Shown: positions 8,356 through 28,732, numbered from the stretch's first letter. The stretch is 64,000 nucleotides of DNA from a virus (IMGVR_UViG_3300050821_006485:37203-101202); one strand, 5' to 3'. Notes: generated from the letters alone by a model not told the origin. Numbers and translations are program-made.

Positions 8356-11300
8356 ATGGCATTACTTCGCTACGATGGTTTTGTAAAGAGCGCTTTGGGA
8401 CAAGCCATAGCTGGCGCACAGATTTATGCATGTACTCAGCCTGCCAATACCGCTTTTATACCGCCTTCTCCCTTACTATCAATTTTTTCAGACATTAATG
8501 GGAACTCGTTAATTACCCAACCTCTTCGGGCCGATGGTTTTGGTCATTTTGATTTTTATATCCCCAGCACCACATTCACCCTTGTTATTGTTAACGGGGG
8601 GAAAGTACAACAGGTATACGCAGACCAGGCCCCAATGGGCAGCTTCGGGAGTGGCGGAGGAAGCATTGATTTAGGGGACCTTGCTAGTACCGACCCGGCA
8701 TCTGCCTTGAGCCCTTATGTCGCAAACGACGCAAACCCAAACATTGCTTTGAATCAGATTGTAATGATTAATAGGGGCTCCATCCCGGTAGATACTAAGC
8801 GTAAAGTCCTTAATGTTTATTTGGAGGTTAATGGGCAGCAATCCGGGGCAAATTACGATGGATTTCAATCTAACGTAGGGGTTACGATAGATGCAAACAC
8901 ATCCCCCTCCGCAGGGGCAGCCGAAGCCGGAGAATTTTCTACCTCCGTGTTTGGACCGGGTCCCTTTAGTCAGATAAATGCTCTAAAAACAAGAACCAGC
9001 ATACTAAACGGGGCTAACTTAACTAATGTAATAGGTTATTCACAGTACCTTCCGCAATTTGATTCTGGAACTACAACTTCTAATTATTTCGGAATTTTCC
9101 AAGATAACCCATCTGGTGGTGGAAACGTTACGAATTGGGTGGGAGCCTCTTTGCAGGCCCCGATTAGCGGGGTTAATGTTACCAATGGCTACGGAATTCT
9201 ATGCAGCGGTGGAACGGCAGCCCTTGTAGCAAACGATGCTACGCCTTCGCATGGTTTCATAGGGCACGGTTCCACCCCTGGGGGCTCGCCTGGCACTCTC
9301 CACGATGGCTGGTATGGCATTACGGGGTCTCCCGAGGGCGTGCTTACTGCTAACATAGGCTCCATAGCTTCTCGCCAAGACGGTGGGCCTGGTACAGCCC
9401 TATACGTAAAGGAAACCGGCTCTGGTAACGTTGGGTGGACGGCGGTGACCTCTACGTCTAACGCAACCAATTTGCAAGGCACCCCAATAAGTACCGTAGG
9501 ACCTACTTCTCTTCAAGTTTTGCAGTTCGTAGGGGGGAAGTGGACCCCGGAAACTGTGGCCGGAATCTCCACGTATAACGTGGCTCACTCAACGGACTAT
9601 ATTTGGTCTATTGTAGCAGGAGTGGGCTTTGGCGCATTAACTGCGGGAACTCCAGCTACGGTAACCTTTGCTACCGCGCCACAAGGCATTGATTGCAGCG
9701 GCAGGGCGTGTACGCCGTACTGGATTTATATATCTGGAGTTGGCACAGCCGAAGCCGTAAAGGTTACCGGAGGTACTTGTACTTCTGGTGCACTTAATTG
9801 CACTGTACAATTTACCCCGTTTTTTAGTCACAGCACCGGCTACACCCTTGGCACTGCTACAGCAGGAATTCAGGAAGCTCTAAACATTGCTTGTGGTGTT
9901 GATCCTAATCCAATTTTGAATGGATATTGCAAAGTTATTGTTCCTCCATCGGCTATAGGGTTTTCTTATCCCGTGCACGCAACTATTACGATGTGCACTA
10001 CGGAGTCTTCTTTAGAGGGGTATGGAGCAACCCTGGCTTGCGATTCTAGGGGGCCGTGCTTGCAAATTGGGGACTTGGTTCTTTCTACCCATGCCAATTC
10101 TAACACTGTACAGGGCCTTACATTTAGACCGACGCCATTGCTTTCTACTTCCGACTACGTGGGAAACCTAATTACCAGCACTTCTCGTGCTAGTGGGGTT
10201 TCCACGATAAACACCAATGCGTCCCATAATTTTAGAGTGGGCGATCCGGTTACAATTCTTTTTACGGATGACACCCGCTATTGGGGGGATGTTCCGCAGA
10301 TCGCATCGGTACCGTCTTCTACATCCTTTACTTACAATTCTACCGGCAGAGGGGATGCTACACTGCAAACAACTCCCGGACTCGTGGCGCTTACATATGT
10401 CTGCGTTTTAGATAACGCCAATGGTACCGCCCTACGTGACTTAAAAGTAGATTATGAGGCCAGCGCGGGGGCTTTTAATGGCATATTCGATTTGTGGGAC
10501 GATGAGGATTGCACTATTGATAATTTTACAAACAATGGGATCGCATTAAACAGAAATATTAACTGGTCTCCTTCGTTTATTGCTTCTTACGGAGCAAACA
10601 ATTTACCCAGTGCTACACAGCAGTTAGCCGCTGTTCTTAGCTTATCTAACACAAGTATAACCGCACAATCGGCTAACGCTATTACCTTTTTTAATTGCAA
10701 CGGGTTGTATATAGATAACACCGTTTTGCAAGCCACCGGACCTTGGCAGGTAAATTGTTCTAATCAAACGGGCAATTTTCAAGGCGCGTCTATTAGAAAC
10801 CTTTATTCAGAGTCTGGAGCCGGTCTTAATCCGGTTTCTCCGGCTAGAAGTCCTTGGCCCGGCTTGGGAACCGCCGGGCTAATCGCGGGGCCTTCTACCG
10901 GCGCGGCATCCTTTAATATCCGTGGGAATGGTAATGTAGCGGGGGCTTATCCTATAGTTGGAACCGGTTCTACTAATTATATTTATTACGTAGTAGCCCA
11001 TGACACCACCGCAGGAACCTCTACTCCACCGCTGCCAGTTATGTATGCCAAATCTAATGGTGGAGCTGTTACCGTATCTTGGCCTAGAATCGCCAACGGT
11101 ACCGACGCATTTACTTATGATGTATTAAGGGTAGCTTCAGCAAGTGGAACCATAGCAGACCCATTAAGCATTTCGCCCTATACAGGGGGATGCCCAGGCG
11201 GATCAACTTCTGCTATGGGCAGTGTTGTAGTTGGACAAGCGCAGCAGTCTGGGTTTATACAAACATTTTCTGATGACACGACAGTTGCTACTACAAGTTA

Positions 11301-15997: not shown

Positions 15998-17117
15998 AAC
16001 TCAGGATGTTATTCTTGGCGTTCTCTCAGGTCCCAATTATGGTTTTAAGTACCCCGGTGTCGAGTCATACATTGTCAGTATAAATCGCTCGGGATTTGCC
16101 GGGCGTAAAGTAATGATCGTCTGGAATATTCATCCAGAAACGCGTAGGGCGTTGGTTGTACACGGGTTTGAAGTTGTAGATTTATCGCCGTGGCCCCCTG
16201 ACCGCTTCTTCCACGCTAGAATGCGCGTGGCGTGGGAGTACATGCGGGATCATTATAAAGAATTCAGATATTGTTTTTGGCTCGACATTAAGGACCTTTT
16301 GCTGCAATCCGATCCGAGTTTATGGATGGAACAAAACATTGGAAAAGCGCAACTCGTAGGTTCAACCGAGTGTACCGCGCTTGCCGAATGCGAAACAAAC
16401 AACCTTTGGATTCGTACAATTTTTGGGGACAAAGTTTTCAACCAAATTGGTCACGAAGAAACAATAAATGGCGGGACTTGGGCAGGTTATGCTGAGCCCA
16501 TGATGGAAGTATTCCATAGGGTTCATAATTTGATTAAAGACTATGGCGGCCCTTATCCGCCGTGTCAAGCAGGCATAAACGTAGCTCTGCATACAGATTT
16601 TAAAAGTATGCTATACATTCCTAGATGGGAGAAGGGCTTTGCTGCGTGCATGCATCCGTTTTGGAGTCCTTGGCGTGTGCCAATGGCCCCTTATTTACGA
16701 GATAAGCCGCCCGTTCTTGATTTGAGAACGTGTGTACTCTATCCGGGAATAGTTAGCGGCCCTAACAACAAAGCAATCCCATTTAACGGCAATTGGGGGC
16801 AGAATAAGGATTTCAGCATTTGCTCGGCATCCGCCGGGCCTATGCACTGCGTAGAATGCGTGGAAAACTCCCAGAATCGGCCATTTTCTATTTTGCACGG
16901 GTATGATCGTGATTGGAATCTTAAAGAAATGTTTGAGTTCAAGTACCGTTTCGACCAAGGCGATTGGAACTTGCAAAAGTTCAAGGAATATAAGGAGCTG
17001 ATGGTGCCGTCGTACCAAAGGGAATTCAAGAGGGGTCTCAGGAGACCCGAGGCTGTTATGGCAGGTGCTAGGTTGGGAACCCAAGCGAGTGCCAGGCAGT
17101 TGCATAGGAGACCTTAA
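15990..17117 (+). CDS. Putative GT-A glycosyltransferase
   Basis: CFWLDIKDLLLQSDP, INGGTWAG, ILHGYDR. Confidence 0.65.
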   Translation: MNKTQDVILGVLSGPNYGFKYPGVESYIVSINRSGFAGRKVMIVWNIHPETRRALVVHGFEVVDLSPWPPDRFFHARMRVAWEYMRDHYKEFRYCFWLDIKDLLLQSDPSLWMEQNIGKAQLVGSTECTALAECETNNLWIRTIFGDKVFNQIGHEETINGGTWAGYAEPMMEVFHRVHNLIKDYGGPYPPCQAGINVALHTDFKSMLYIPRWEKGFAACMHPFWSPWRVPMAPYLRDKPPVLDLRTCVLYPGIVSGPNNKAIPFNGNWGQNKDFSICSASAGPMHCVECVENSQNRPFSILHGYDRDWNLKEMFEFKYRFDQGDWNLQKFKEYKELMVPSYQREFKRGLRRPEAVMAGARLGTQASARQLHRRP

Positions 17118-17121
17118 ACCT

Positions 17122-17850
17122 ATGAAAGTACTTATAGGGGTGATTACCTGCCATAAGCACTCGGCGTTTCAGCAAGCCATAAGAAACACTTGGCTACCAC
17201 ATACCCCTAAAGAGGTAGACGTAAGGTTTTTCTCGGGGAGGGGAGCTAAGCGAGAACCAAGGGAAGACGAAGTTTTTTTAGAAAATGCGGGTGACGAATA
17301 CCTTGATCTGCCAGAAAAGGTCAAGGCAATGTTCACTTGGGCGTATGAACATGGCTATGATTTTGCCATGAAACTAGATAACGACGTGGTTTTAAAACCA
17401 CAGGAATGGTACAACGGTTTTTATCGGGACGACTTCTCGGGCTATGGTGATGTCAACGTAAAAAATGGGGAAATCAAAACTCCATGGGGATTCGCCTACG
17501 TCCTCAGCAGGAAAGCAATGGAGTTGATAGTGAACGCTCCGCTTCCGGGACAGCCCGGTTCTATGTGGAGTACGTCGCATTCTAACGATGAAGCGTTTGT
17601 AAGCTCAGTTTTGCACTGGAACGGTATTTATTTGCACAACGACTCTAGATACGTGCTATTCAGGGGGAAACCGACTGAGCGAGACCTAAGCAAGGTGCAT
17701 AGACCATTGCGTAGGCCTAGGCCGATGGAAAAAGAGTGCCAGGCGGGTGCATTTGCTACCTGTATTTATTTGAACTGGAACGGATTTCATATGACTCCAG
17801 ACGAAGAGATTCTCAGAGAGTTTCATAGAGTATTTTCTGAGGGTAAGTAG
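17122..17850 (+). CDS. GT31-like glycosyltransferase (paralog of 14451)
   Basis: ATG 17122 after AGGAG; IRNTW, MKLDNDV, GFAYVLSRKAM, NDEAFV. Confidence 0.8.
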   Translation: MKVLIGVITCHKHSAFQQAIRNTWLPHTPKEVDVRFFSGRGAKREPREDEVFLENAGDEYLDLPEKVKAMFTWAYEHGYDFAMKLDNDVVLKPQEWYNGFYRDDFSGYGDVNVKNGEIKTPWGFAYVLSRKAMELIVNAPLPGQPGSMWSTSHSNDEAFVSSVLHWNGIYLHNDSRYVLFRGKPTERDLSKVHRPLRRPRPMEKECQAGAFATCIYLNWNGFHMTPDEEILREFHRVFSEGK

Positions 17851-17856
17851 AACAAA

Positions 17857-18386
17857 AATTAACTAATTGTATCCGACTAGCTCGGGGAGGAAATTAAATT
17901 ATGCCACAAGTACAATTCGAGTTACCAGAGCAGCCTATCGGCTCGGCAACAAGTGCAACATCACAAGTCAGTTTGCTGGAATTAACGTTTCCAGACATTA
18001 CGCAAAAAAGTATACGAGCATGGGGCATCATTACATTTAGTCCGGGCTCTTATGTAAAGGGCGGACTGTTTGTAAACCTCATGCAATTCGCGGATGACCG
18101 AGCAATCGACTTCAACGGATTTTTGCGTTGCAAAGTTTGGAACGAAGACCCGGTTCCGCCGGGTGGAATTAATTATACGTACCACTATGCACCAACTTCG
18201 GACGTTGTTCAAATTTTTAATAACGGAGTGGAGTTAGCTACTGGGACGCAAATTCCTGCGGCTATTCTGAATGACGATACCTTGTTTTTAGCCACCTGGG
18301 ACCGTACTAACGTTCGTGGATAAGATTTTAGAAGTAAATTAACTAATTGTATCCGCCAAAAAGCGCGGGGAAATGGAAAAAAAATT
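17857..18386 (+). repeat. Duplicated leader AATTAACTAATTGTATCCG...CGGGGA...AAATTATGCCA (two copies, ~17857 and ~18337)
   Basis: Identical 19-mer ahead of both 17901 and 18387. Confidence 0.85.
17901..18323 (+). CDS. Stand-alone beta domain, paralog of the C-terminus of 18387 (likely decoration protein)
   Basis: ELTxPDITxKSxRxWG...DFNGFLRC...QIFNNGVELA...WDRTxVRG shared with 18387. Confidence 0.75.
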   Translation: MPQVQFELPEQPIGSATSATSQVSLLELTFPDITQKSIRAWGIITFSPGSYVKGGLFVNLMQFADDRAIDFNGFLRCKVWNEDPVPPGGINYTYHYAPTSDVVQIFNNGVELATGTQIPAAILNDDTLFLATWDRTNVRG

Positions 18387-19439
18387 ATGCCAACACTTGA
18401 TTCATTATTGGGTACCGCATCAAACTTTGATGTACTTGCGGGCTCTACGGTTACAAACTCTGGAGCAACTGTTCTTACTGGAGGTGATCTAGGTCTTTCT
18501 CCTGGTTCATCTGTAACGGGCTTTCCGCCAGGCGTAGTTACTCCTCCTAATGTACAGCACATTACCGATTCTGTCGCAGCCAAGGGTCAATCCGACCTTA
18601 CTGCCGCATATACGTACTTTGCCGGATTAGCCGGAGCTACGCCTATCGTTGGAAACTTAAACGGTCAAACATTTGTTCCCGGTTTGTATAGCGGCGGCGC
18701 GATTGATCTGGCAGTAGGTGGAACCGTAACCCTTAACGGAAACGGCGACCCAACTGCGGAATTTATTTTCCAAGCCGCGTCCACTCTTACCTTCAACAAC
18801 GGTTCTACTGTTGTCCTTACAAATGGTGCAACCGCCAAAAACATTATATGGCAAGTTGGAAGCTCTGCAACCATCGGAACCACGGCGGTTGTTTCTGGGG
18901 ACATCGTGGCGCTGACTTCAATTTCCGTGAACACCGGGGCCACGGTCAACGGCAGATTACTCGCCAGAAACGGCGCGGTGACGTTGAGTGGTAACACTGT
19001 TACTGCCCCGGCAACTGGCGCGGGAACGGGTACGGGAGGTGGCGTAGTAGCGATAGGCACATCCTCAGCGAGTGCCACGGTGACGCTAAGCGAACTCACA
19101 CACCCAGATATTACAGGAAAAAGTTTAAGATCATGGGGAGTGGTGACTATTAATCCTGGAGGTTACACAAGCGGAGGAATTCCGTTCGGATTGATGCAGT
19201 ACGCGGACCAACGTACGGTGGATTTTAATGGGTTCTTGCGTTGTGAGGTCTACGGCGAGGAACCTAAGAACAACATCATATTGGCAACTATTGCATACCG
19301 TTATACCCCAGTCACAGATTCTCTCCAGATTTTTAATAACGGGGTAGAACTTGCCGGGGGCTCTGCTATACCAGTCTCTGTGTTATCTGACACCTTGCTT
19401 TTTGAGGCACAGTGGGATCGCACTAGCGTAAGAGGATAA
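18387..19439 (+). CDS. Ice-binding protein (DUF3494) fused to a C-terminal virion-type domain
   Basis: LGTASNFDVLAGSTVTN, GDLGLSPG, DLTAAY, FIFQAASTL, NIIWQVGSSATIG, GRLLARNGAVTL. Confidence 0.9.
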   Translation: MPTLDSLLGTASNFDVLAGSTVTNSGATVLTGGDLGLSPGSSVTGFPPGVVTPPNVQHITDSVAAKGQSDLTAAYTYFAGLAGATPIVGNLNGQTFVPGLYSGGAIDLAVGGTVTLNGNGDPTAEFIFQAASTLTFNNGSTVVLTNGATAKNIIWQVGSSATIGTTAVVSGDIVALTSISVNTGATVNGRLLARNGAVTLSGNTVTAPATGAGTGTGGGVVAIGTSSASATVTLSELTHPDITGKSLRSWGVVTINPGGYTSGGIPFGLMQYADQRTVDFNGFLRCEVYGEEPKNNIILATIAYRYTPVTDSLQIFNNGVELAGGSAIPVSVLSDTLLFEAQWDRTSVRG

Positions 19440-19453
19440 TTCAACAACAATTT

Positions 19454-19530
19454 CCTGAGATTAATTACCTCAGGCAGCCGTGGGGAATGCCTACCTATGC
19501 ATGGGCATTCTCCGCGCATCTTCATAGGAG
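19454..19530 (+). promoter_or_regulatory. Hairpin plus SD-sequestering pseudoknot leader (copy 1)
   Basis: CCTGAG/CTCAGG hairpin; 15-bp stem with loop CCTATG pairing CATAGG over the SD AGGAG. Confidence 0.7.
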
Positions 19531-19537
19531 AAAAATA

Positions 19538-20191
19538 ATGCCGCATCATAAGAATACACATTGTAAGCATGGACATGAGTACACGGTAGAAAATACAAGG
19601 ATATTACCTAACGGGGCAAGAGTTTGTCGAGCATGTAAGCGTGAATGGGCAAGAGAAAACACGGGATTAGAAGAGGGGGAAGTAAAGCAAAATAAAAATC
19701 AGAACACTGACAAAACCCATTGTCTTCGTGGTCACGAGTTTACATCGGAAAACACATACATGAAGGGCGAACGTAGGATTTGTATAATTTGTAGGAATGC
19801 CGCCCAGCGCGATAGACAAAGGATTGCAGAAGCAAAATACAGAGCGTTAAAGAAATCCAGCCCTGAATTATGGGAAAAAGAAAGACGAAGAAGAAGGGCA
19901 CAACAACTTAAAAGAGTCGGTTGGAATATTGATCTTTTTGAAGAGACCCTAAACCTGCAAGAAAATAAATGCGCCGTTTGTAGAACTGTTCTAGATATTA
20001 ATGCTATAAAGAACGGCGCTACTAACCAGGCTCATGCTGACCATGAGCACGTAGAGCCTCCAAAGCCTAGAGGTATTTTATGTGGCAATTGTAATTTAGG
20101 CATTGGAAATTTAAAAGAAAACCCAGAAATTATGTTGGCAGCAATTGCCTACGTAACTAAATGGAAGGAAGAGAGGTCGTACGGGCCATAA
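19538..20191 (+). CDS. Free-standing homing endonuclease, endonuclease VII family
   Basis: Two THCxxGHExTxENT modules; QENKCAVC...HADHEH...RGILCGNCNLGIG; ATG 19538 after AGGAG. Confidence 0.85.
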   Translation: MPHHKNTHCKHGHEYTVENTRILPNGARVCRACKREWARENTGLEEGEVKQNKNQNTDKTHCLRGHEFTSENTYMKGERRICIICRNAAQRDRQRIAEAKYRALKKSSPELWEKERRRRRAQQLKRVGWNIDLFEETLNLQENKCAVCRTVLDINAIKNGATNQAHADHEHVEPPKPRGILCGNCNLGIGNLKENPEIMLAAIAYVTKWKEERSYGP

Positions 20192-21491
20192 TTTATCGCA
20201 GTTAGGTAAGTAATTGCCTCATCAATCAGCAATGATTGTTTGTAACCTAGAGAATTCGGTGGAACACCCGATAGGGTCAATACCGAGCCGAGCCCAGAAA
20301 TGGGAAGGTGTAACGACTATCTCGAAAGAGAGTAGGGAACAGCGTTCCCGAAGCACTAGGGGTCCTGCAAAGGGATCAAGATATAGTCTGGACTTATTAG
20401 TAATAATAAGAGAGTAAGCGGACGCGGCTTATTTGTAACAATAATCGACAGCATCATTAGACGCCTTTTCTGGATTAATCACCATAGCCGATGCAGTGGA
20501 CCTCCCTGAAGGCGCGAGTCCTAGAAATTGGGACGTTCAGTTTAACGTAGGTAGCGTACGCACCAGGTCCGGTTTATTGAGCGTGTACTCTTACGCGACC
20601 ACATTAATAATCACTTCCTATGTTCTTCATTACGGTATAGCAGTGTTTGGGTATACTGGCGTAGAACCAACGGTTAATGAGGGGTTTTTGTTGTCCGGTT
20701 TTATAAACAACCTTTCATATCTGAATGGCCTCCAGGTATTTGTCGTTTCCGCGACAGCAACAACCTTCTCGGTTTTCTTGCCATTTAAGGACGACGGTCC
20801 ATTTTTCAATCTCACAGGTTCTGCGGTCTCCCTTTCAGGCGCATTCGCTGGGCCTAACCTAGGCAACACCGTAACTTCCACCGGGTGGACCAACCCCAGT
20901 GGAATCCTAGGTAACGTTTCTTACGCCTCGGCAGTCGGTGGCGCAGCCTTATCAGCAACAATGGTTCCTACGGCGGCAGGAAATGAGTCGTCTAGTAATC
21001 CGGCGTGGACCGCCCCTGGCAACGTATACACTACCGGCTCGGCATTCGCCCAAGTTACTCTATCTATCGCCGCAGGTGGTGGCGGAGGGGGCGGTGGTGG
21101 TGGCGGGGGTGGAGGTGGAGGGGGTGGCGGCGGAGGCGGTTGCTTCTCCGCAGCGGTTTCCGTTCGTACCCCAGAAGGTCTTATCGAGCTGGGAAATGCG
21201 CCCGGCACTCTCCAAGTTTCTAACGAAACCGGTACGCATAGTGCGCGGCTTATCGTTCACAAGGATTACAAAGGTTGGATGGTGGTAATCGAAGAGGATA
21301 AGCTTGTCACCATAGATCACGTTATGAGGTCCGGGGATAAATGGGAACCGGCTGGGCTTAAATATCACAATCTACGCCGAGTCTGGTTCGTGGGTACGGT
21401 CTTCGATTTACACGTTATCTCCGATAATGAGGCAGATCATCACTACATACTGTGGAACGGTGACATAGCCCATAACAAACAACTAAAATAG
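20181..21491 (+). CDS. Tail nozzle/stabilisation-like protein, N-terminal part (spliced: 20181-20207 joined to 20448-21491), ending in Gly22 and a Hint domain
   Basis: Spliced frame reads (M)GHNLSQLG|TASLDAFSGLITIADAVDLPEGASPRNWDV; start inferred at ACG after GAGG; ORF caller starts at 20496. Confidence 0.65.
20208..20447 (+). ncRNA. Group I intron (IA-like, no internal ORF)
   Basis: P1 AGGT|AA-GTAA-TTGCCT with U.G at the splice site; P3 CCTAG/CTAGG; P4 TTCGGT/ACCGAG; R GTAACGACTA; P7.1 and P7.2 hairpins; S AAGATATAGTCT; P9; terminal G20447. Confidence 0.9.
21141..21476 (+). other. Hint (intein-like, BIL-type) autoprocessing domain
   Basis: Block A CFSAAVSVRTPEG, block B VTIDH (TxxH), block F VFDLHV, terminal AHN followed by K rather than C/S/T. 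Confidence 0.85.
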
Positions 21492-21503
21492 AAGGGAGTA
21501 ACC

Positions 21504-24500
21504 ATGGCGGTATCCGCATTGCTGCTGGCAAGCAGTATAAACTTTAACATACCCAGTAGCGCTACCGTGCTTGGCATTTCCACGTCGTTCGCAGCGCAAG
21601 CCGTGGGCACCGGAACTCCCTCTATTAACATTGAACTTGCTTTAAACGGGGCACCGATAGGGTCGTATATAAACGTTCCTATCGGCAGCTCCCTGAAGAC
21701 CTATACTCAGGGTTCTTCCGCATTTCAATGGGGAACTACGTTAACACCCGCCATTGTAGATGGCAGTTCGCTTGGCATTCTCCTGCAAGCCGAGTTGGAC
21801 ACCTCCGGGACCTCAGCGGTCAGCTCCACGTTTAGCGTAAACAACCTCTCGGTGTCGGTATACTACACCACGTCTTTGCTTTCTGAAATTTTGCAGGTCG
21901 AGACGTTTTCCTTTGCGGTACCGGCAACATCTGGTATATCCGGCATCGGGGTGAGCTTTGTTGCGTATTCCAGCCTTACTACTAACTTGTCGGTGCAGAT
22001 GATTAAGGCCGAGGTGCCGGTTGGTACGCCGAAAAGCGTAACGCTAAGCAGCACACCTACTATCTACACGATTGGGGCATCGAACGATCTGTGGGGCACC
22101 ACGTGGATTTCTTCTGATATCAACAACACAGGTTTCGGTGTACAGATAACCGGGTCGGGGGTTGGTACTACATTTGCCAAAGATTTAGATATCTTGGCTT
22201 ACCTTACTCCGTCTTTGGCTGATTTTCTGTACGTAAAAACATATGAGCAGAACAACGGGCAAATTACTACTCTTGCCTTAGATGATTCTGGAATCATGTG
22301 GAAGGAGGACGTTAACAATAACCCTAACGTTCTTTCCACGGCCTTGGTTGGTATTATTCCCGGTTCTTATGCCAAGAGCGCCACGGCGGATAACCAAGAG
22401 TACATCATGTTCTCAGACCTCTCCATTGGCACGGAGAGACCCAGAGTTTTAAGCGGTAACACTTTTTATCCCCTGTCTCAAGTAGGACCGGGAGCACCGC
22501 CATCGTTCCAGGCATCAATCGGCTCGATAAGCAATATACTGAGCCTTAGCCATTATTCTCTATCTGGGAATGTAGTTACCTTTACCTATACGGGTACTAT
22601 GCCTACGGTAGGCAGCATTTATATTCTCAGCAATGTTGTTTCCTACCTAAACGGACAGTCGGTTATTGTACTTAGTACCGGATTATCGCCCACCACGTTT
22701 GAGGTGCAATTTCAACACCCTGATGATATTGGCTCAGCAATTAATGGTACGGCCACGCCTACTTTTAGTTATTCCATCCAGTCGATTACGCAACCGGTGC
22801 CCTATTCTGGCATCGCAGAATTTTTGTGGAGCGCGGGTCCGGGACAGACTTCTCCGGGATCAACGGTTACGGTTTATTATAAGCACGATACAACTGGTGG
22901 ACAGGACCCAGGGTTATCTTCCACAACAAACCCTGTTTATGTTAACTTAGCACATGCTACAGGAGGGGCGGCACAGTTTAATGGTACATGGCTTGTTAAT
23001 GGCACGGGATTAGGAAATCCTCCGGGGGTAGGGGGTAATTATTGGTACTTTACGTTTACTTATACGGCATCCGGTAGTTACAGTCAAATTTTTCCTCCAG
23101 GAAATCCTGTTTCATACCAAATTACCCTTGCAACCTTAACCACATCTACGCCCATCCCTAACCTTACAGCGGGTAGTCCGATTACTATTACCGGGGTTAC
23201 ACCCACCGGTTGGAATAGCAACTGGACAATAGTTACACCCCTGACTAGCGGAGTTCTTAATATTAGTGGCACCCAGATGGATGCCTCCGGTAACGCCTCG
23301 TATACGTACAACGTACAAAGCGGGGCCGGTCCTTTAGTCGGGGAAATTGTTACTGTTACGAATTGTACCAATGCGGCTATATTTAATGCCACCGGAGTTA
23401 TTTCTTCTGTGGCAGGCGGAATATTTCAGATTGCCGGATTCCCGCCAAATCATCCCATACCGTTTGCGTTTGAAGCTAATGGCGTGGGTTCTACGTTTGG
23501 TACGCAGTTTACATTTGATCCCGGCGCAGTGGTCGCGGGCACTACCGGCCAATCTATTTTTGGCAACGCTGGTTCTGGTGGAAAGGTTACCATTGTTGGC
23601 AGCTCGATTCAGCCTTTAGGGGCCGGTACTCGCCAAGCGGTAGTGTTCTTTATTACGCAAAGCGGCCTGGAGACTGCCGTGTCGCCGCCGGTAACATTTA
23701 CCACGTCTTCTAACGCCAATGAACTAGAGGTTACTAATATTCCTATCGGCCCTCCAAATGTCATTGCAAGAGGCATAGCGATTACCGAGGCGGGCGCTAA
23801 CGGTGTGCCGGGAGCTAGTTTTTACGTGATCCCTAACAACGTTGTGTTAACCGTGGGAAACACCGTCACTACGTACCCATCCACAATTATTAGGGATAAT
23901 ATTACCACATCTGCTAAGCTTTCGTTTACGGACGCGGTGCTCCTGTCTTCCCAAGAAATAGATGTGCAGGGCAACAACCTGTTTAATCTAATCGAGCTGG
24001 GCAGTTCCGCTTGGTGCCTGCCTTACGCATCCCGCATGTTCTACGGAATGCAGCTAAACAAGGTTGATAACTTTAATAACCTCACGTTCGATGGTGGTTA
24101 CCTACCAAACCCAGGAGGTAACTTATTTCCACTTGGTTGGATTGGAACCGATGTAGCCAATACCAATCTTATTAACAGCCCGGTTACCGGCATGTCTCTA
24201 TACATCAAGAACGCCGGTTCTACGGTAAAGTCCGGGGTTGGTCTAGTTTATCAGACTGCCTACACGGACCCCTACCAAGTTCCAATAATTTTGCCGAATA
24301 CCTTGTATTCCGTTAGAGTGGCAGCAAGCAATCCTTCTGGAAACGCGGTGGGGTCTCTGGTTATCGACTTGACGGACTTCAATACGGGAATCGGATTTGG
24401 CATCACCTACGGAACGTTCTCGGTGCTGTTAGCCAGCATGTCTACGAATACTTCGGTATTTACTGGGGCATTGCTAACCACACCCTTTACACAAGGCGTA

Positions 24501-25769
24501 AGCCCTGCTTTGCAACTAAGGGTGAGCTTAGCGAATGCCGGGCCGGGGGCCGATGTACAGGTGGACAGGATAGAGGTATTCCCGACTTTGGAGCCTTATC
24601 TGCTCACGCAGGTCTATGGCTCGTACATTGATAATTTGGAGGCGATAGATGCCAGCGGTTCCGGGGGGATTATTAATACCGCCTCGGAAAATAGCCAAAC
24701 GTGCACGGGCGGGTTCGTGATGCACGACATCATGTATTTGCTCAAAACGAACTCGCTTTATTCCACGCAAGATATCCCAACGAGCGAACCGGGAGGCTGG
24801 AGCCTCAGAGAGGTGAGTAATAAGGCCGGTTCTATTGGAATACATTCTTATTCCTCAGGCGAAGAGTGGGCAGTGATGGCGTGCCGTGCGGGGATTTATG
24901 GTTTTAACGGCGGGCAACCTGTTCCCATTAATTGGGAAATCAGACAAATTTGGGAAGCAATTAATTGGGACGCTGGTAAGACAATTGTATTGCGCAATGA
25001 TGTAACTAATAAAATGATGTATTGTGCAATCCCTTTGCCGACCGGTACTGACCCAGTTACAGGTATAACTACAAAGTCTATAAAGTGGCTTCCTTTTGCC
25101 CCCTATAACCCGGCTCCTATATCTCCAAATGTTATGTTGGTTCTTAATTACCAAGCAATGGATTCTTTTGAGGAACTAATAGGAGCATCAGGAATTAGGA
25201 CCACGATGTTTGGCACGCTTGCCGCTGTTGATATGAAGCGTAAGTGGACTATTTGGCAGATACCAAGTCCGTACATGGATTTTATTATGAGGCCAAATGG
25301 AATTGATACTCCTCTATTCGTGTGTAACGGAATTGATTCTTCAAAAATTTATGAATTCGAAGACAACCAATTTAGCGATGATGGTACAGCAATTTTCAGC
25401 CTCTATACAACCTATGGGCATGTTAATGCTGCTAAGAGTGCGACCATACCCCTGTTCGGTTATCACGCGAAGAGATACACGGTATTTCAAGTGAACGCAA
25501 AAGGATCGGGTAACATGCAAGTTAGAGTTATACCTAATGTGCTTGAAGCTCGTTACCCTTATACTATACCAGGCGGAATTAATCTTTTTGACCCAGCTAA
25601 TGACGATGCCTTTAGACCTTTAAACATAAAAGGTAATAGAGTGTTTTTGGAATTTTCTACCAATGCCGTTGGTTCATGGTTCCAAGTTTCTAAATCACTG
25701 TTAACTGGCAAGGCCGATCCTTGGTCCAGTTTGAATCCGACCGGAGGATTAAATACCGGCATAAAATAA
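21504..25769 (+). CDS. Tail nozzle/stabilisation-like protein, C-terminal part
   Basis: 1421 aa; beta-propeller-like segments (MYLLKTNSLY, GIYGFNGGQPVPINWEIRQIW) with inserted beta domains; own GGGAG RBS. Confidence 0.65.
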   Translation: MAVSALLLASSINFNIPSSATVLGISTSFAAQAVGTGTPSINIELALNGAPIGSYINVPIGSSLKTYTQGSSAFQWGTTLTPAIVDGSSLGILLQAELDTSGTSAVSSTFSVNNLSVSVYYTTSLLSEILQVETFSFAVPATSGISGIGVSFVAYSSLTTNLSVQMIKAEVPVGTPKSVTLSSTPTIYTIGASNDLWGTTWISSDINNTGFGVQITGSGVGTTFAKDLDILAYLTPSLADFLYVKTYEQNNGQITTLALDDSGIMWKEDVNNNPNVLSTALVGIIPGSYAKSATADNQEYIMFSDLSIGTERPRVLSGNTFYPLSQVGPGAPPSFQASIGSISNILSLSHYSLSGNVVTFTYTGTMPTVGSIYILSNVVSYLNGQSVIVLSTGLSPTTFEVQFQHPDDIGSAINGTATPTFSYSIQSITQPVPYSGIAEFLWSAGPGQTSPGSTVTVYYKHDTTGGQDPGLSSTTNPVYVNLAHATGGAAQFNGTWLVNGTGLGNPPGVGGNYWYFTFTYTASGSYSQIFPPGNPVSYQITLATLTTSTPIPNLTAGSPITITGVTPTGWNSNWTIVTPLTSGVLNISGTQMDASGNASYTYNVQSGAGPLVGEIVTVTNCTNAAIFNATGVISSVAGGIFQIAGFPPNHPIPFAFEANGVGSTFGTQFTFDPGAVVAGTTGQSIFGNAGSGGKVTIVGSSIQPLGAGTRQAVVFFITQSGLETAVSPPVTFTTSSNANELEVTNIPIGPPNVIARGIAITEAGANGVPGASFYVIPNNVVLTVGNTVTTYPSTIIRDNITTSAKLSFTDAVLLSSQEIDVQGNNLFNLIELGSSAWCLPYASRMFYGMQLNKVDNFNNLTFDGGYLPNPGGNLFPLGWIGTDVANTNLINSPVTGMSLYIKNAGSTVKSGVGLVYQTAYTDPYQVPIILPNTLYSVRVAASNPSGNAVGSLVIDLTDFNTGIGFGITYGTFSVLLASMSTNTSVFTGALLTTPFTQGVSPALQLRVSLANAGPGADVQVDRIEVFPTLEPYLLTQVYGSYIDNLEAIDASGSGGIINTASENSQTCTGGFVMHDIMYLLKTNSLYSTQDIPTSEPGGWSLREVSNKAGSIGIHSYSSGEEWAVMACRAGIYGFNGGQPVPINWEIRQIWEAINWDAGKTIVLRNDVTNKMMYCAIPLPTGTDPVTGITTKSIKWLPFAPYNPAPISPNVMLVLNYQAMDSFEELIGASGIRTTMFGTLAAVDMKRKWTIWQIPSPYMDFIMRPNGIDTPLFVCNGIDSSKIYEFEDNQFSDDGTAIFSLYTTYGHVNAAKSATIPLFGYHAKRYTVFQVNAKGSGNMQVRVIPNVLEARYPYTIPGGINLFDPANDDAFRPLNIKGNRVFLEFSTNAVGSWFQVSKSLLTGKADPWSSLNPTGGLNTGIK

Positions 25770-25772
25770 TAT

Positions 25773-25843
25773 CTCATAGCTTAGCGGCTTTGAGCTAGAG
25801 CTGGAACAGCCTGATACTGCTTCCAGCTCGATCTTATCAGGAG
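25773..25843 (+). promoter_or_regulatory. Hairpin plus SD-sequestering pseudoknot leader (copy 2)
   Basis: CTCA..TGAG hairpin; GAGCTGGAA/TTCCAGCTC stem with loop CCTGATA pairing TATCAGG over AGGAG. Confidence 0.72.
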
Positions 25844-25848
25844 AGAAA

Positions 25849-26478
25849 ATGATAGTATATTTAGTAACAAACAAACATAACGGAAAACAATATGTAGGGC
25901 AGACCGTAAAACCTCTTCAAACTAGATGGGCGCAGCATGGGAATGACACTTCTCATGTATCTCTCTTACGCAACGCTTTGAAAAAGTATGGAACAAATTC
26001 TTTCGTAATAGAAATTATCCATGAATGTCTGCATAAAGAAGAAATGGATTTTGTAGAAATATTCTACATTTCATTTTTGAATACTAAATCTCCTAATGGT
26101 TATAATTTAACAGACGGGGGAGAGGGAAGTTTAGGGCATACGCCTACAAAAGAAGCAAGAGTTAAAATGAGTTTGGCTAAGAAAGGATTACTACCGCCAA
26201 AGCCCATAAAAAGGGGACAAAGGTTATCCCCGAGTACAGAAATTAAAAAGGGACAAAGATTATCTCCTAGTACTGAATTTAAAGCCGGATTTATTCCTTG
26301 GAATAAAGGTAAGTCGCATCTAAAAGGGGCGCTTAATCCTTTTTACCACAAAAAACATTCTCCCGAAGCTTTACAAAAAATGCGACTAGCTAAACTCGGT
26401 AGAAAGCAATCTCCAGAACATGTAGCTAAGAGAATGGCCAGTATATTAAAAAGGAAGGAACTAGATGGCTCACGGTGA
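25849..26478 (+). CDS. GIY-YIG homing endonuclease with NUMOD3-like repeats
   Basis: IVYLVTN...YVGQT...RW, E, GYNLTDGGEG; KGQRLSPSTE twice; HSPEALQKM. Confidence 0.9.
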   Translation: MIVYLVTNKHNGKQYVGQTVKPLQTRWAQHGNDTSHVSLLRNALKKYGTNSFVIEIIHECLHKEEMDFVEIFYISFLNTKSPNGYNLTDGGEGSLGHTPTKEARVKMSLAKKGLLPPKPIKRGQRLSPSTEIKKGQRLSPSTEFKAGFIPWNKGKSHLKGALNPFYHKKHSPEALQKMRLAKLGRKQSPEHVAKRMASILKRKELDGSR

Positions 26479-27094
26479 ACATGCAATTCTAGAAGGTGGC
26501 CGTGAACTCCCATTTCTAAGCCAACAAAACACTTATCTAGGTTCTATTCTTCAGCGCATCCTTGACGCCGTGAACCTTACCGCAAAGAACGCCGGTGTTT
26601 CATCCGTGGGCAAAATTGCACCCCCTGATCCGGTGGACAGTGTGAATATACAAGGTACTCAACTTGGTTCTAAATTAATCGCTCCTTCTGAAATATTGCA
26701 TCTGACCTTAACTCATAATGGGCCTGTAAAGAAAAACGTCCAGTACATAACAGAAGTCGCTACGGACAGTAACTTTTCTAATCCGCATATTATAGATCAC
26801 GGATGTAGCCGCTCGGCATTCGTTCATCTTCCTACTTATCTTGACGATGGCGTTACTAAGCAAATCTATTATGTTCGCTCGTATCCGCAATATCCCGGCA
26901 GCGATCCCGCCAGACCGACCGTATTTGGGGGTCTAGCGCAGCCAATACAGGTGCAGATGACCGGTTCATCCGCAGGTACCTTACTACAGTCTACGGGCAG
27001 CGGAACTGCCTCTCCGACCGGTAATCAGGGCGGACACGGCTTGGGCAAGATTCTAGACAGACCGGCTACGGGGCCGAAACGTAATTTGGTGTAA
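26465..27094 (+). CDS. Virion structural protein
   Basis: FnIII-like YITEVATDSNFSN...YYVRSY; lies in the tail module. Confidence 0.6.
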   Translation: MAHGEHAILEGGRELPFLSQQNTYLGSILQRILDAVNLTAKNAGVSSVGKIAPPDPVDSVNIQGTQLGSKLIAPSEILHLTLTHNGPVKKNVQYITEVATDSNFSNPHIIDHGCSRSAFVHLPTYLDDGVTKQIYYVRSYPQYPGSDPARPTVFGGLAQPIQVQMTGSSAGTLLQSTGSGTASPTGNQGGHGLGKILDRPATGPKRNLV

Positions 27095-27096
27095 CT

Positions 27097-27276
27097 ATGG
27101 CAGAGAAAAAACAAACGTTAAACTTGAAGATGTACGCCGGGGTACTATTCCCAGATGACTCCGTGCAAACGAGCGCACTTCTCTCCGGTTCGCCCGGTCA
27201 GCTAACACAGACGCAGATGCCCCCTGTTATTGACCCTACTGGTACCCTGACTCAAATTGATCTAGGTGTTTTCTAA
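27097..27276 (+). CDS. Small 59-aa protein missing from the ORF track
   Basis: MAEKKQTLNLKMYAGVLFPDDSVQTSA...TQIDLGVF; stop overlaps next ATG (TAATG); C-terminus resembles that of 27276. Confidence 0.65.
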   Translation: MAEKKQTLNLKMYAGVLFPDDSVQTSALLSGSPGQLTQTQMPPVIDPTGTLTQIDLGVF

Positions 27277-27917
27277 TGTCAATCGCAATCCAACATAAAC
27301 GAGGCCTAAAAGCCAATCTACCCGCGTCTGGCGCGGCGGGTGAGTTCTTCGTAACAACGGATACCCATGAGATAACCATCGGTACCGGCGCGGGAACAAG
27401 CCCACTCAAGGTCGATGCGTCAAACGTAACTAATTTGCCCGCAGCAACTCAGCCTGTGAATGCGCAGACCGGTACAACGTACGCTATAGTTGGAGGAGAC
27501 GCCGGTAAACTTGTTACGTTGTCTAATGCCTCCCCAGTGGCGGTATCAATTCCCCAAGCTGGAACCGGGTTGTTTACCAGTACTTTCTTTGTTGACCTAC
27601 AAAATCTAGGGGCGGGTGCGGTAACCATTACACCGACCACTTCTACGATTAACGGCGCGGCGACCTTCGTTCTACAGAAGAACCAGGGCATTCGCCTGAA
27701 TTCCGATGGGGCTAATTACCAGGTTCAAACTGGTATGAAGCCGGCGAAGTTCACGGCGGTTGCTAACCAGTTCCTAACTAGCGTGGACGACAGTGGCAAC
27801 TTCTCGGCAGCACAGCCCGCGTTTACGAACATCTCGGGAACTTTGGTTGAAGGACAGTTGCCCAGCACCATTGACGGAGTAACAGGGCTAGCAACTATAG
27901 ATTGCGGCACATTTTAA
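27276..27917 (+). CDS. Fibre-type protein with Mtd-N/hyaluronidase-like N-terminal motif
   Basis: [12 protein letters not shown]...GEFFVTTDT; NAQTGTTY...DAGKLV module; IDCGTF end. Confidence 0.65.
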
Positions 27918-27925
27918 AGGAAATT

Positions 27926-28732
27926 ATGAAACTATCTATTTCTACTTTGTTATTGCTGTTAAGTTCATACGTGGGCGCACAGTGTACGGCTACGGTACCG
28001 CCGCCCGGTACAGATTGCCAAGGGCCGGTTAATGTGGTAGGTAATCCAACAGTTCAATCTGCAACTATTTTGAAAGATAATGGAAAGCCGGTTTCTGACC
28101 CCGCCGCAAATCTTTATATCCAAACAATTTTAAATGGGATCATTCAAGAATCCGATAATGGCGGACCTTACCATTCTCTTGTCGGCCCGCAAGGACCGGC
28201 GGGACCAATAGGTTTAACTGGCGCACAGGGTCCCCAAGGTGCCGCAGGAGCAACCGGTGCTCAAGGCCCAGCAGGCCCGCAGGGACAACCTGGTCCGCAA
28301 GGCTTAGTAGGCCCCACTGGTAATACTGGTCCCGCAGGTCCGCAAGGAAACCCAGGACCAGCGGGCGTAGCCGGAGCAACTGGCCCGCAAGGTTTGCAAG
28401 GCGTACAAGGTAACCCTGGTAACGACGGAGCAGTTGGCCCGGCTGGTCCTCAAGGTGTGCCGGGCGCAACCGGCCCGGCGGGCGCTGATGGTGCCCCTGG
28501 CCCACAAGGTCCTACTGGTCAGACAGGCCCAGCAGGGACAACCGGACCACAGGGTCCGACAGGCGCAACCGGGGCTACGGGGCCGCAAGGACCTCAGGGT
28601 GTGCAAGGCGTACCAGGCATCGTCGTAGGTCAAACCTTTACTGGACTATTAACCTGCGTAGCAGATGCCCACCATTCCGTGGTGTATGGGTTCTCCACTA
28701 CGTGTACCTATAAAATAATGGCGATTAAATAG
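27926..28732 (+). CDS. Collagen-like (Gly-X-Y) protein with predicted signal peptide
   Basis: ~48 GXY triplets (GPQ/GPA/GAT); [20 protein letters not shown]; AAGGA RBS. Confidence 0.85.

Follow-up and report, generated by a model that had tools for sequence, protein, structure and literature searches.

We analyzed a window of 64,000 nucleotides of viral DNA (IMGVR_UViG_3300050821_006485:37203-101202), which forms the final 64 kb of an IMG/VR phage record (101 kb, 91% complete) and in which the gene for a probable tail or receptor-binding protein is interrupted by a cassette of 22 glycines (Gly22) followed by a Hint domain. The locus is a two-cistron version of a phage virion protein that is normally a single chain of ∼1650 amino acids (aa), and its cassette is a typical copy of a widespread module found at the free C-terminus of numerous phage virion proteins. 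The known forms of Hint domains are inteins, Hedgehog processing domains and bacterial intein-like (BIL) domains; what is new here is a Hint resembling type-A BIL domains in a terminal, gene-splitting context. With a probability of about 0.65, we favor a simple self-removal of the Hint domain at the Gly22|Cys junction, the two chains being held together by strand complementation.

The first open reading frame (ORF; 20496-21491, like all features described here on the + strand) ends, in this order, with the host residues ...AQVTLSIAA, the Gly22 tether (21075-21140), a Hint domain of 112 aa running from Cys1 to Asn112 (CFSAA...TIDH...IAHN, 21141-21476), the tail KQLK (21477-21488) and a TAG stop codon (21489-21491). 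The tether, the tail and the spacer behind them can be read directly from the sequence, and the Hint domain, which is without an endonuclease domain, is backed by a fold model and a family profile. The tether has exactly 22 glycines and, because all four GGN codons are used (nine GGT, six GGC, four GGA and three GGG), it is not a simple slippage repeat. An intercistronic spacer (21492-21503) contains the Shine-Dalgarno sequence AAGGGAG (21492-21498), 5 nt before the ATG at 21504, so that the second ORF (21504-25769) opens 12 nt past the stop. The two ORFs share one frame (20496 and 21504 are each divisible by 3), the 1421-aa product of the second one is recorded in identical form from two contigs, and the guanine-cytosine (GC) content of the Hint-coding part (0.49) equals that of its flanks. 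A sequence-only reading of the window had described this anatomy from the glycine run to the new ribosome-binding site and ATG, and we recovered every element of it at its place. Read-through or recoding of TAG was rejected since no suppressor tRNA was found in the 101-kb genome and TAG ends 19 of its 90 long ORFs.

The same reading had proposed that the upstream ORF holds two N-terminal halves of beta-sandwich modules and the downstream ORF the two matching C-terminal halves, and had named the continuity of homologous genes as a check. Relatives do encode one continuous protein. In 11 IMG/VR loci, homologues of the upstream and downstream ORFs formed one open frame of 1590-1860 aa, nearly all of the ∼45 informative metagenome loci were continuous, and so were 78 of the 84 protein clusters covering the junction. 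In these counts, P0003 and probably P0202 were truncated gene calls and were not taken as split, and four loci that look frameshifted or intron-bearing (L115, L066, L082 and L084) were left out. The host part of the first chain (20448-21074) has homologues at 43-55% identity, and the second chain is 47-59% identical to the matching part of continuous relatives of 1600-1860 aa. When the two chains were aligned with continuous relatives, the end of chain 1 and the start of chain 2 fell in adjacent columns with nothing missing.

We then located the break within the protein architecture using an AlphaFold model of a continuous relative (L002), whose predicted local distance difference test (pLDDT) score was 85-93 over residues 160-450. 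The point equivalent to the break lies at about residue 224/225, between strands at 216-220 and 229-232. Whole jelly-rolls, namely CBM4-2 (4bj0), CBM16 and the meprin MAM domain, aligned to residues 184-339, a range that spans the break point (Z 9.5-11, ∼130 aligned residues, root-mean-square deviation (rmsd) ∼3 Å), and another carbohydrate-binding module (CBM; 4mgs, Z 9.6) aligned discontinuously over residues 145..451 as an outer domain. Because whole jelly-rolls align in the inner range and the other CBM aligns discontinuously around it, the model, which is of the relative and not of the window chains, places the split in mid-domain, in an inner CBM-type sandwich nested in an outer one. By the alignment and the domain ranges of this model, the host part of the first chain would comprise, besides a conserved N-terminal region and a small beta domain, the opening strands of both sandwiches: GWTNPSGI..YASA (20883-20933) for the outer one and AWTAPGNV..FAQVTLSIAA (21003-21074) for the inner one. 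The second chain would continue with the rest of the inner sandwich (residues ∼1-125), the rest of the outer one (∼126-235) and then ∼1200 aa of conserved structural protein. The clean junction in the alignment and the L002 model thus agree with the proposed pairing of halves, and the jelly-roll alignments with a break inside a nested domain. Because the relatives are continuous and the break lies inside a nested beta-sandwich, it is sound to infer that the two chains would reassemble by strand complementation.

The Hint domain itself was modeled with AlphaFold2 from an alignment of 50 family members (pLDDT 92.9, predicted TM-score (pTM) 0.86), and the model has the HINT superfamily fold, an all-beta horseshoe whose N- and C-termini lie side by side. 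All Foldseek matches were Hint-fold proteins, with BIL2 (6y75, 1.3e-5) as the best one and the NpuDnaE intein at 1.4e-5. In structure alignments (VIA), the neighbors included the NpuDnaE intein (Z 13.0, 111 aa, rmsd 2.2), the Clostridium thermocellum BIL domain 2lwy (Z 12.5, 109 aa, rmsd 2.1), Tetrahymena BIL2 (Z 11.7), Vint (Z 11.2) and the Hedgehog domain HhC (1at0, Z 10.8), and all of the 75 PDB chains at Z>=8 were inteins, BIL, Vint or Hog domains. The modeled Cys1 and terminal Asn superposed on the splice-junction residues of inteins and BIL domains. The window Hint has the position-1 nucleophile Cys1, block B as T57-I-D-H60 and a C-terminal His-Asn (IAHN, 21465-21476), and retains every position that is at least 90% conserved in the 50 family members (C1, F2, T57, H60, H111 and N112). 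Sequence searches were less telling: phmmer and profile searches of the PDB with the Hint gave only sub-threshold intein matches, and the PT-HINT profile gave no match.

In type-A BIL domains (Amitai 2003 and Dassa 2004, as summarized in PMC7765530), Asn drives C-terminal cleavage and the flanks are not ligated. The window domain has the N-terminal Cys and C-terminal His-Asn of that class, for which no +1 nucleophile is needed, and by comparison with the description in PMC7765530 it agrees with a type-A BIL domain. The +1 residue is Lys and the stop follows after four residues, leaving neither a +1 Cys, Ser or Thr nor a C-extein, and a canonical (class 1) intein was rejected on these two points in spite of the His-Asn end. 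A split, trans-splicing intein was rejected because the whole Hint lies on chain 1 and chain 2 opens with host residues that align to continuous relatives. A Hedgehog Hog domain was likewise rejected, since the window domain is without a sterol- or adduct-recognition region and only KQLK follows it. The earlier assignment to a BIL/Hedgehog kind of Hint, which has Cys1, TxxH and His-Asn but lacks a +1 nucleophile, is supported by the sequence, the predicted fold and the structure alignments alike.

The sequence-only reading had treated the cassette as a one-off, which it is not. A profile built from the window Hint and one relative was searched against 1.84 billion representatives and matched 242 clusters at E<=1e-3, of which 134 were at E<=1e-10. 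Family statistics were taken from 142 complete Hint domains from the best 150 of the 242 clusters. Cys1 was present in 140 of the 142 domains and the His-Asn end in 135. Among these 135, 109 had a tail of 3-12 aa followed by a stop (peak at 4-5 aa, mode 4 aa), 108 had Lys within positions +1 to +3, and eight had Cys, Ser or Thr at +1. A Gly-rich linker, defined as at least half Gly in the 12 residues before Cys1, was found in 87 of the 139 domains with the full stretch, and the -1 residue was Gly in 51 of 142. Pfam at E<=0.01 recognized Vint in 20, Hint_2 in three and Hint in two of 50 members. The family module thus runs from a Gly-rich linker through a Hint that starts with Cys-Phe-(Ser/Thr) and ends in His-Asn to a tail of 3-12 aa, which has Lys at +1 to +3, and a stop; the window has each of these as Gly22, CFS, AHN, KQLK and TAG. 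A minority of family Hints are internal, with long C-terminal sequences. A literature search found no published description of a Hint family capping phage virion proteins.

The same module ends an unrelated fiber-like protein of ∼800 aa in another locus (L050), where a stop, a ribosome-binding site and, four codons later, an ATG follow. We searched for a fused form of this protein and its downstream ORF and found none, which is weak evidence. As a variation on the module, tandem double Hints separated by 3-6 residues (e.g. AHN-LKAGGG-CF) occur in about a dozen clusters (P0004, P0005, P0007, P0008, P0009, P0016, P0030-32, P0038, P0047 and P0065), and in P0054 the Hint is followed by KGGGGGG-Cys and a different domain.

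Other states were found at the same loop of the same host protein. The site carries a Hint in three cases, the window among them, versus ∼130 relatives without one. In L015 (= P0006) and P0029, a related Hint is inserted in frame, with +1 Ile and Glu, respectively, and host sequence resumes after AHN-ILK... and AHN-EKP.... The L015 insertion (8400-9053 of IMGVR_UViG_3300021170_000272) consists of a Pro-rich linker, an IPT/TIG domain (Pfam 3.7e-13), Gly9-Ala and the in-frame Hint within a 1873-aa ORF, indicating that the loop can display a cargo domain; the P0029 Hint also stands behind a Pro-rich linker. Four clusters (P0161, P0170, P0180 and P0191) are split without a Hint and start with MST... 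at exactly the split point of the window, so that a chain break at this loop appears to be tolerated. In the C-fragment tree these clusters are scattered among continuous relatives and the split label needs at least four changes, which points to recurrent splitting, re-fusion or junction exchange; from their common MST start, recombination or re-fusion may be involved. Two homologues of the N-fragment are also Hint-less. One (P0001, 240 aa) ends in a Gly-rich run, PRPITIK and a stop, which may be the scar of a Hint loss or a precursor state, and the other (P0002) ends in poly-Pro and an unrelated domain of ∼200 aa.

Taken together with the domain models, these observations lead us to the following account of the locus. 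The first cistron (exon 1, a group I intron and exon 2, described below) would yield a host fragment of ∼218 aa followed by Gly22, the type-A-BIL-like Hint and the four-residue Lys-bearing tail, and the second cistron would be translated from its own Shine-Dalgarno sequence and ATG. The Hint would shift the Gly22-Cys1 peptide bond to a thioester, whose resolution, in the simplest case through water or a small thiol, would detach the Hint and leave the N-fragment with a flexible poly-Gly C-terminus. The N-fragment would supply the first strands of two interleaved jelly-rolls and the C-fragment, which opens with the remaining strands, would lock onto it non-covalently, rebuilding the one-chain architecture. 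The module would thereby sit on a C-terminus created by a gene split at a break-tolerant loop.

Several points weigh against this account. The cleavage, its products and the complementation are predictions from sequence and models. The conservation of the terminal Asn and the tail Lys has no obvious use under it and suggests that more than N-terminal cleavage takes place in the family. The window Hint scored 13 bits against Pfam Vint (PF14623; E 0.09, gathering score 27; the L015 Hint scored 16.8 bits) and remained below all Pfam gathering scores. The trees and the approximately unbiased (AU) test are compatible with either order of events, split first or Hint first. Finally, no PHROG, Pfam or PDB sequence match fixes the role of the host protein: Pfam and PHROGs gave no match for either whole ORF, nor did tblastn of GenBank phages or a profile of the C-terminal 630 aa against the PDB, and PHROGs on five full-length relatives and on nine neighbors of a 44-kb relative gave nothing useful.

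Among the other explanations, the one closest to the sequence-only reading is that an amine attacks the Gly22 thioester, provided either by the partner chain (the alpha-amine of its processed N-terminus or a Lys) or by another protein of the virion or the host. The product would be a covalent (iso)peptide link formed without ATP, and it would stitch the tail assembly together covalently through a Gly tether of ∼70 Å, in the manner of BUBL BIL2. Such a ligation has a precedent in the structural neighborhood of the window Hint, since BIL2 of the Tetrahymena BUBL1 locus is reported to perform Lys-isopeptide chemistry (PMC8616854), and the length of the tether would allow an acceptor some way off to be reached. 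The family as a whole conserves the terminal Asn and a Lys close to it, and a Lys (at +3 or +2) is also retained in L015 and P0029, where the Hint is in frame. Nevertheless, the four Hint-less clusters split at the same point and the Hint-less N-fragments indicate that a two-chain protein can work without its chains being covalently rejoined. The module also ends the unrelated fiber-like protein of L050, for which the missing fused form again counts only weakly, and the residue that would be transferred is Gly in just 51 of 142 domains. The acceptor is hypothetical, and neither ligation of the poly-Gly end to the partner chain, another virion protein, a glycan or a host molecule nor interference with Bil-type tail-conjugating defenses, all of which had been suggested earlier, found any support. 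We therefore regard ligation in trans as unlikely.

The tail offers another acceptor. A Lys of KQLK could attack the thioester and cyclization of Asn112 could then free the Hint, leaving the N-fragment capped by an isopeptide-linked peptide, which would amount to protein splicing with Lys as the nucleophile. This would explain why His-Asn is kept in 135 of 142 domains though almost nothing follows it, and it would suit the Lys within +1 to +3 in 108 of 135 domains, the tail-length peak at 4-5 aa, the Lys at +1 and +4 of the window and the Lys-directed chemistry of BIL2 (PMC8616854). The argument is an inferential one, though, and the product is without obvious use; type-A BIL domains are described as performing Asn-mediated C-terminal cleavage without ligation of the flanks (PMC7765530), and the Lys may have a structural role or be left over from internal ancestors. 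Self-ligation onto the tail accordingly seems to us quite improbable.

It is also conceivable that the Hint is a selfish or decaying passenger, an intein-like element that was inserted in frame into a permissive loop and whose C-terminal junction later mutated to a stop, a ribosome-binding site and an ATG, in which case it may be inactive or useless to the phage. The shared frame of the two ORFs would follow from such an origin, as would the distance from His-Asn to the first host residue, which is 13 codons including the stop versus linkers of 11-13 residues in the in-frame forms. Selfish elements moreover abound at the locus (a group I intron, an EndoVII gene and a GIY-YIG gene), and the Hint is rare at the site, with three carriers versus ∼130 relatives without it. 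Decay, however, is hard to reconcile with the intact state of all conserved catalytic positions or with a tail length and a Lys that are typical of the terminal family, unlike the outcome of random decay, and the GC content of the Hint does not stand out from that of its flanks. The best tree grouped the window Hint with the terminal Hints of other proteins (52-58% identity), apart from those of L015 and P0029 (44%), but the AU test did not reject a single clade for the three Hints at the site (p 0.265), a result compatible with a common origin there as well as with separate ones. On balance we consider a mere passenger very unlikely. That the TAG is a sequencing or assembly error in a continuous in-frame gene like L015 is the least credible explanation of all, since, although a single stop codon separates two ORFs in one frame, the ATG has a strong Shine-Dalgarno sequence 5 nt ahead of it, a tail of 4 aa is the commonest in the family, L050 has the same layout and the identical 1421-aa product comes from two contigs.

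The favored self-removal of the Hint can be compared with several known systems. Like the type-A BIL domain 2LWY, the window domain is a mini Hint fold with Cys1, TxxH and His-Asn, without a +1 Cys, Ser or Thr and without an endonuclease domain; such domains occur in variable regions of non-conserved proteins and would be expected to form an N-terminal thioester and undergo Asn-driven C-terminal cleavage. Unlike them, it ends a cistron four residues after His-Asn, behind Gly22, on one half of a domain-split phage virion gene. BIL2 of the Tetrahymena thermophila BUBL1 polyubiquitin-like locus (6Y75/6TMM) shares a Gly-ended N-extein before Cys1. According to its depositors, it joins a C-terminus to a Lys epsilon-amine by an isopeptide bond and conjugates a ubiquitin-like domain to other proteins (PMC8616854), and this transfer is the chemistry that a ligation would require. 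In contrast, identity to the window Hint is ∼12%, and the window N-extein is a fragment of a virion protein and not a ubiquitin-like domain.

The Hedgehog Hog domain (1AT0) is likewise a C-terminal Hint that is removed from its N-terminal product through a thioester at a Gly|Cys-Phe junction, but it has a sterol-recognition region that the window domain is without, and the window Hint ends in His-Asn as described for inteins and type-A BIL domains (PMC7765530). Split inteins and 'fractured genes' (Dassa 2009, PMC2677866) resemble the locus in that an intein-type element marks the break between two cistrons and homing endonuclease genes lie close by. In the window, however, chain 1 carries the Hint in full, C-terminal blocks included, and chain 2 starts with host sequence, so that canonical trans-splicing is not possible. 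The Peptidase_S74 chaperones of tail spikes and fibers are also C-terminal modules of fiber proteins that cut themselves off after their job, as is expected here; their fold and chemistry are unrelated, and no S74 match was obtained in our Pfam search.

We take the host protein to be a probable tail or receptor-binding protein that bears CBM-like sandwiches, since the CBM-like domains, the BFVD matches, many of the named ones of which are tail proteins, and the neighboring genes support that role. The neighbors include an Mtd_N protein, a collagen-like fiber and glycosyltransferases, and on their own make a tail role plausible. An Atlas look-alike search yielded no more than a weak lead, crAss_MUZ_C (0.85). 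The stretch 27276-28732 forms a receptor-binding neighborhood: it encodes the Mtd_N (major tropism determinant N-terminal) protein (Pfam 2.1e-9) and, behind it, a collagen-like tail fiber (PHROG 6e-37). Two genes upstream of the split gene, 18387-19439 encodes a complete ice-binding-like domain (Pfam PF11999, 1.8e-50), and the C-terminal part of this protein resembles the preceding 140-aa ORF. The N-terminal motif DLPEGASPRNWDVDF..G.V.TR.G recurs in proteins of 1400-2400 aa from many uncultured phages (∼40-47 kb; L013-L049), in which CBM-type modules come directly after it. With this N-terminal region, a widespread giant protein without a PHROG or Pfam family is probably attached to the virion.

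At the 5' end, a start of the N-fragment gene at GTG 20496 was rejected because a 9-codon exon 1 and a 240-nt intron precede it. Exon 1 (20181-20207) encodes (T/M)GHNLSQLG from an apparent ACG start behind GAGAGG and is collinear with the MGHNLxxLG of P0001 and P0002. It is followed by an ORF-less group I intron (20208-20447), matched by Rfam RF00028 at 20198-20410 (57.8 bits, gathering score 50, E 7.9e-13), and by exon 2 with the host part of the N-fragment (20448-21074). Joining 20207 to 20448 restored an N-terminus collinear with the homologues, and the spliced product is 356 aa long. An Rfam scan of 17000-28000 at E<=1 showed this 5' intron alone, and a second intron or RNA element that would remove the cassette was therefore rejected.

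Homing nuclease genes stand on both sides of the split gene. Upstream, a free-standing homing endonuclease of the EndoVII/HNH type is encoded at 19538-20191 (Pfam Endonuclease_7 4.9e-12; PHROG endonuclease VII/HNH 2.9e-21), with a good ribosome-binding site before its ATG at 19538. Its stop lies inside exon 1, and the endonuclease and the group I intron look like a candidate collaborative-homing pair. Downstream, a GIY-YIG/NUMOD3 homing endonuclease is encoded at 25849-26478 (Pfam GIY-YIG 1e-9, NUMOD3 1.3e-8), and GIY-YIG-like ORFs are also found directly downstream of the Hint-ended gene in L050.

In sum, two genes can share the coding of one beta-sandwich in a virion protein, and one loop of this protein exists in four states: unsplit in ∼130 relatives, with an in-frame Hint in two, with a Hint and a split in one, and split without a Hint in four clusters. 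This series provides natural controls for whether such modules only cut themselves off or also ligate. If ligation does occur, the modules would represent a new way of assembling virions covalently and could serve as ready-made tools for protein engineering; if there is none, they would show how intein-like elements persist without splicing.

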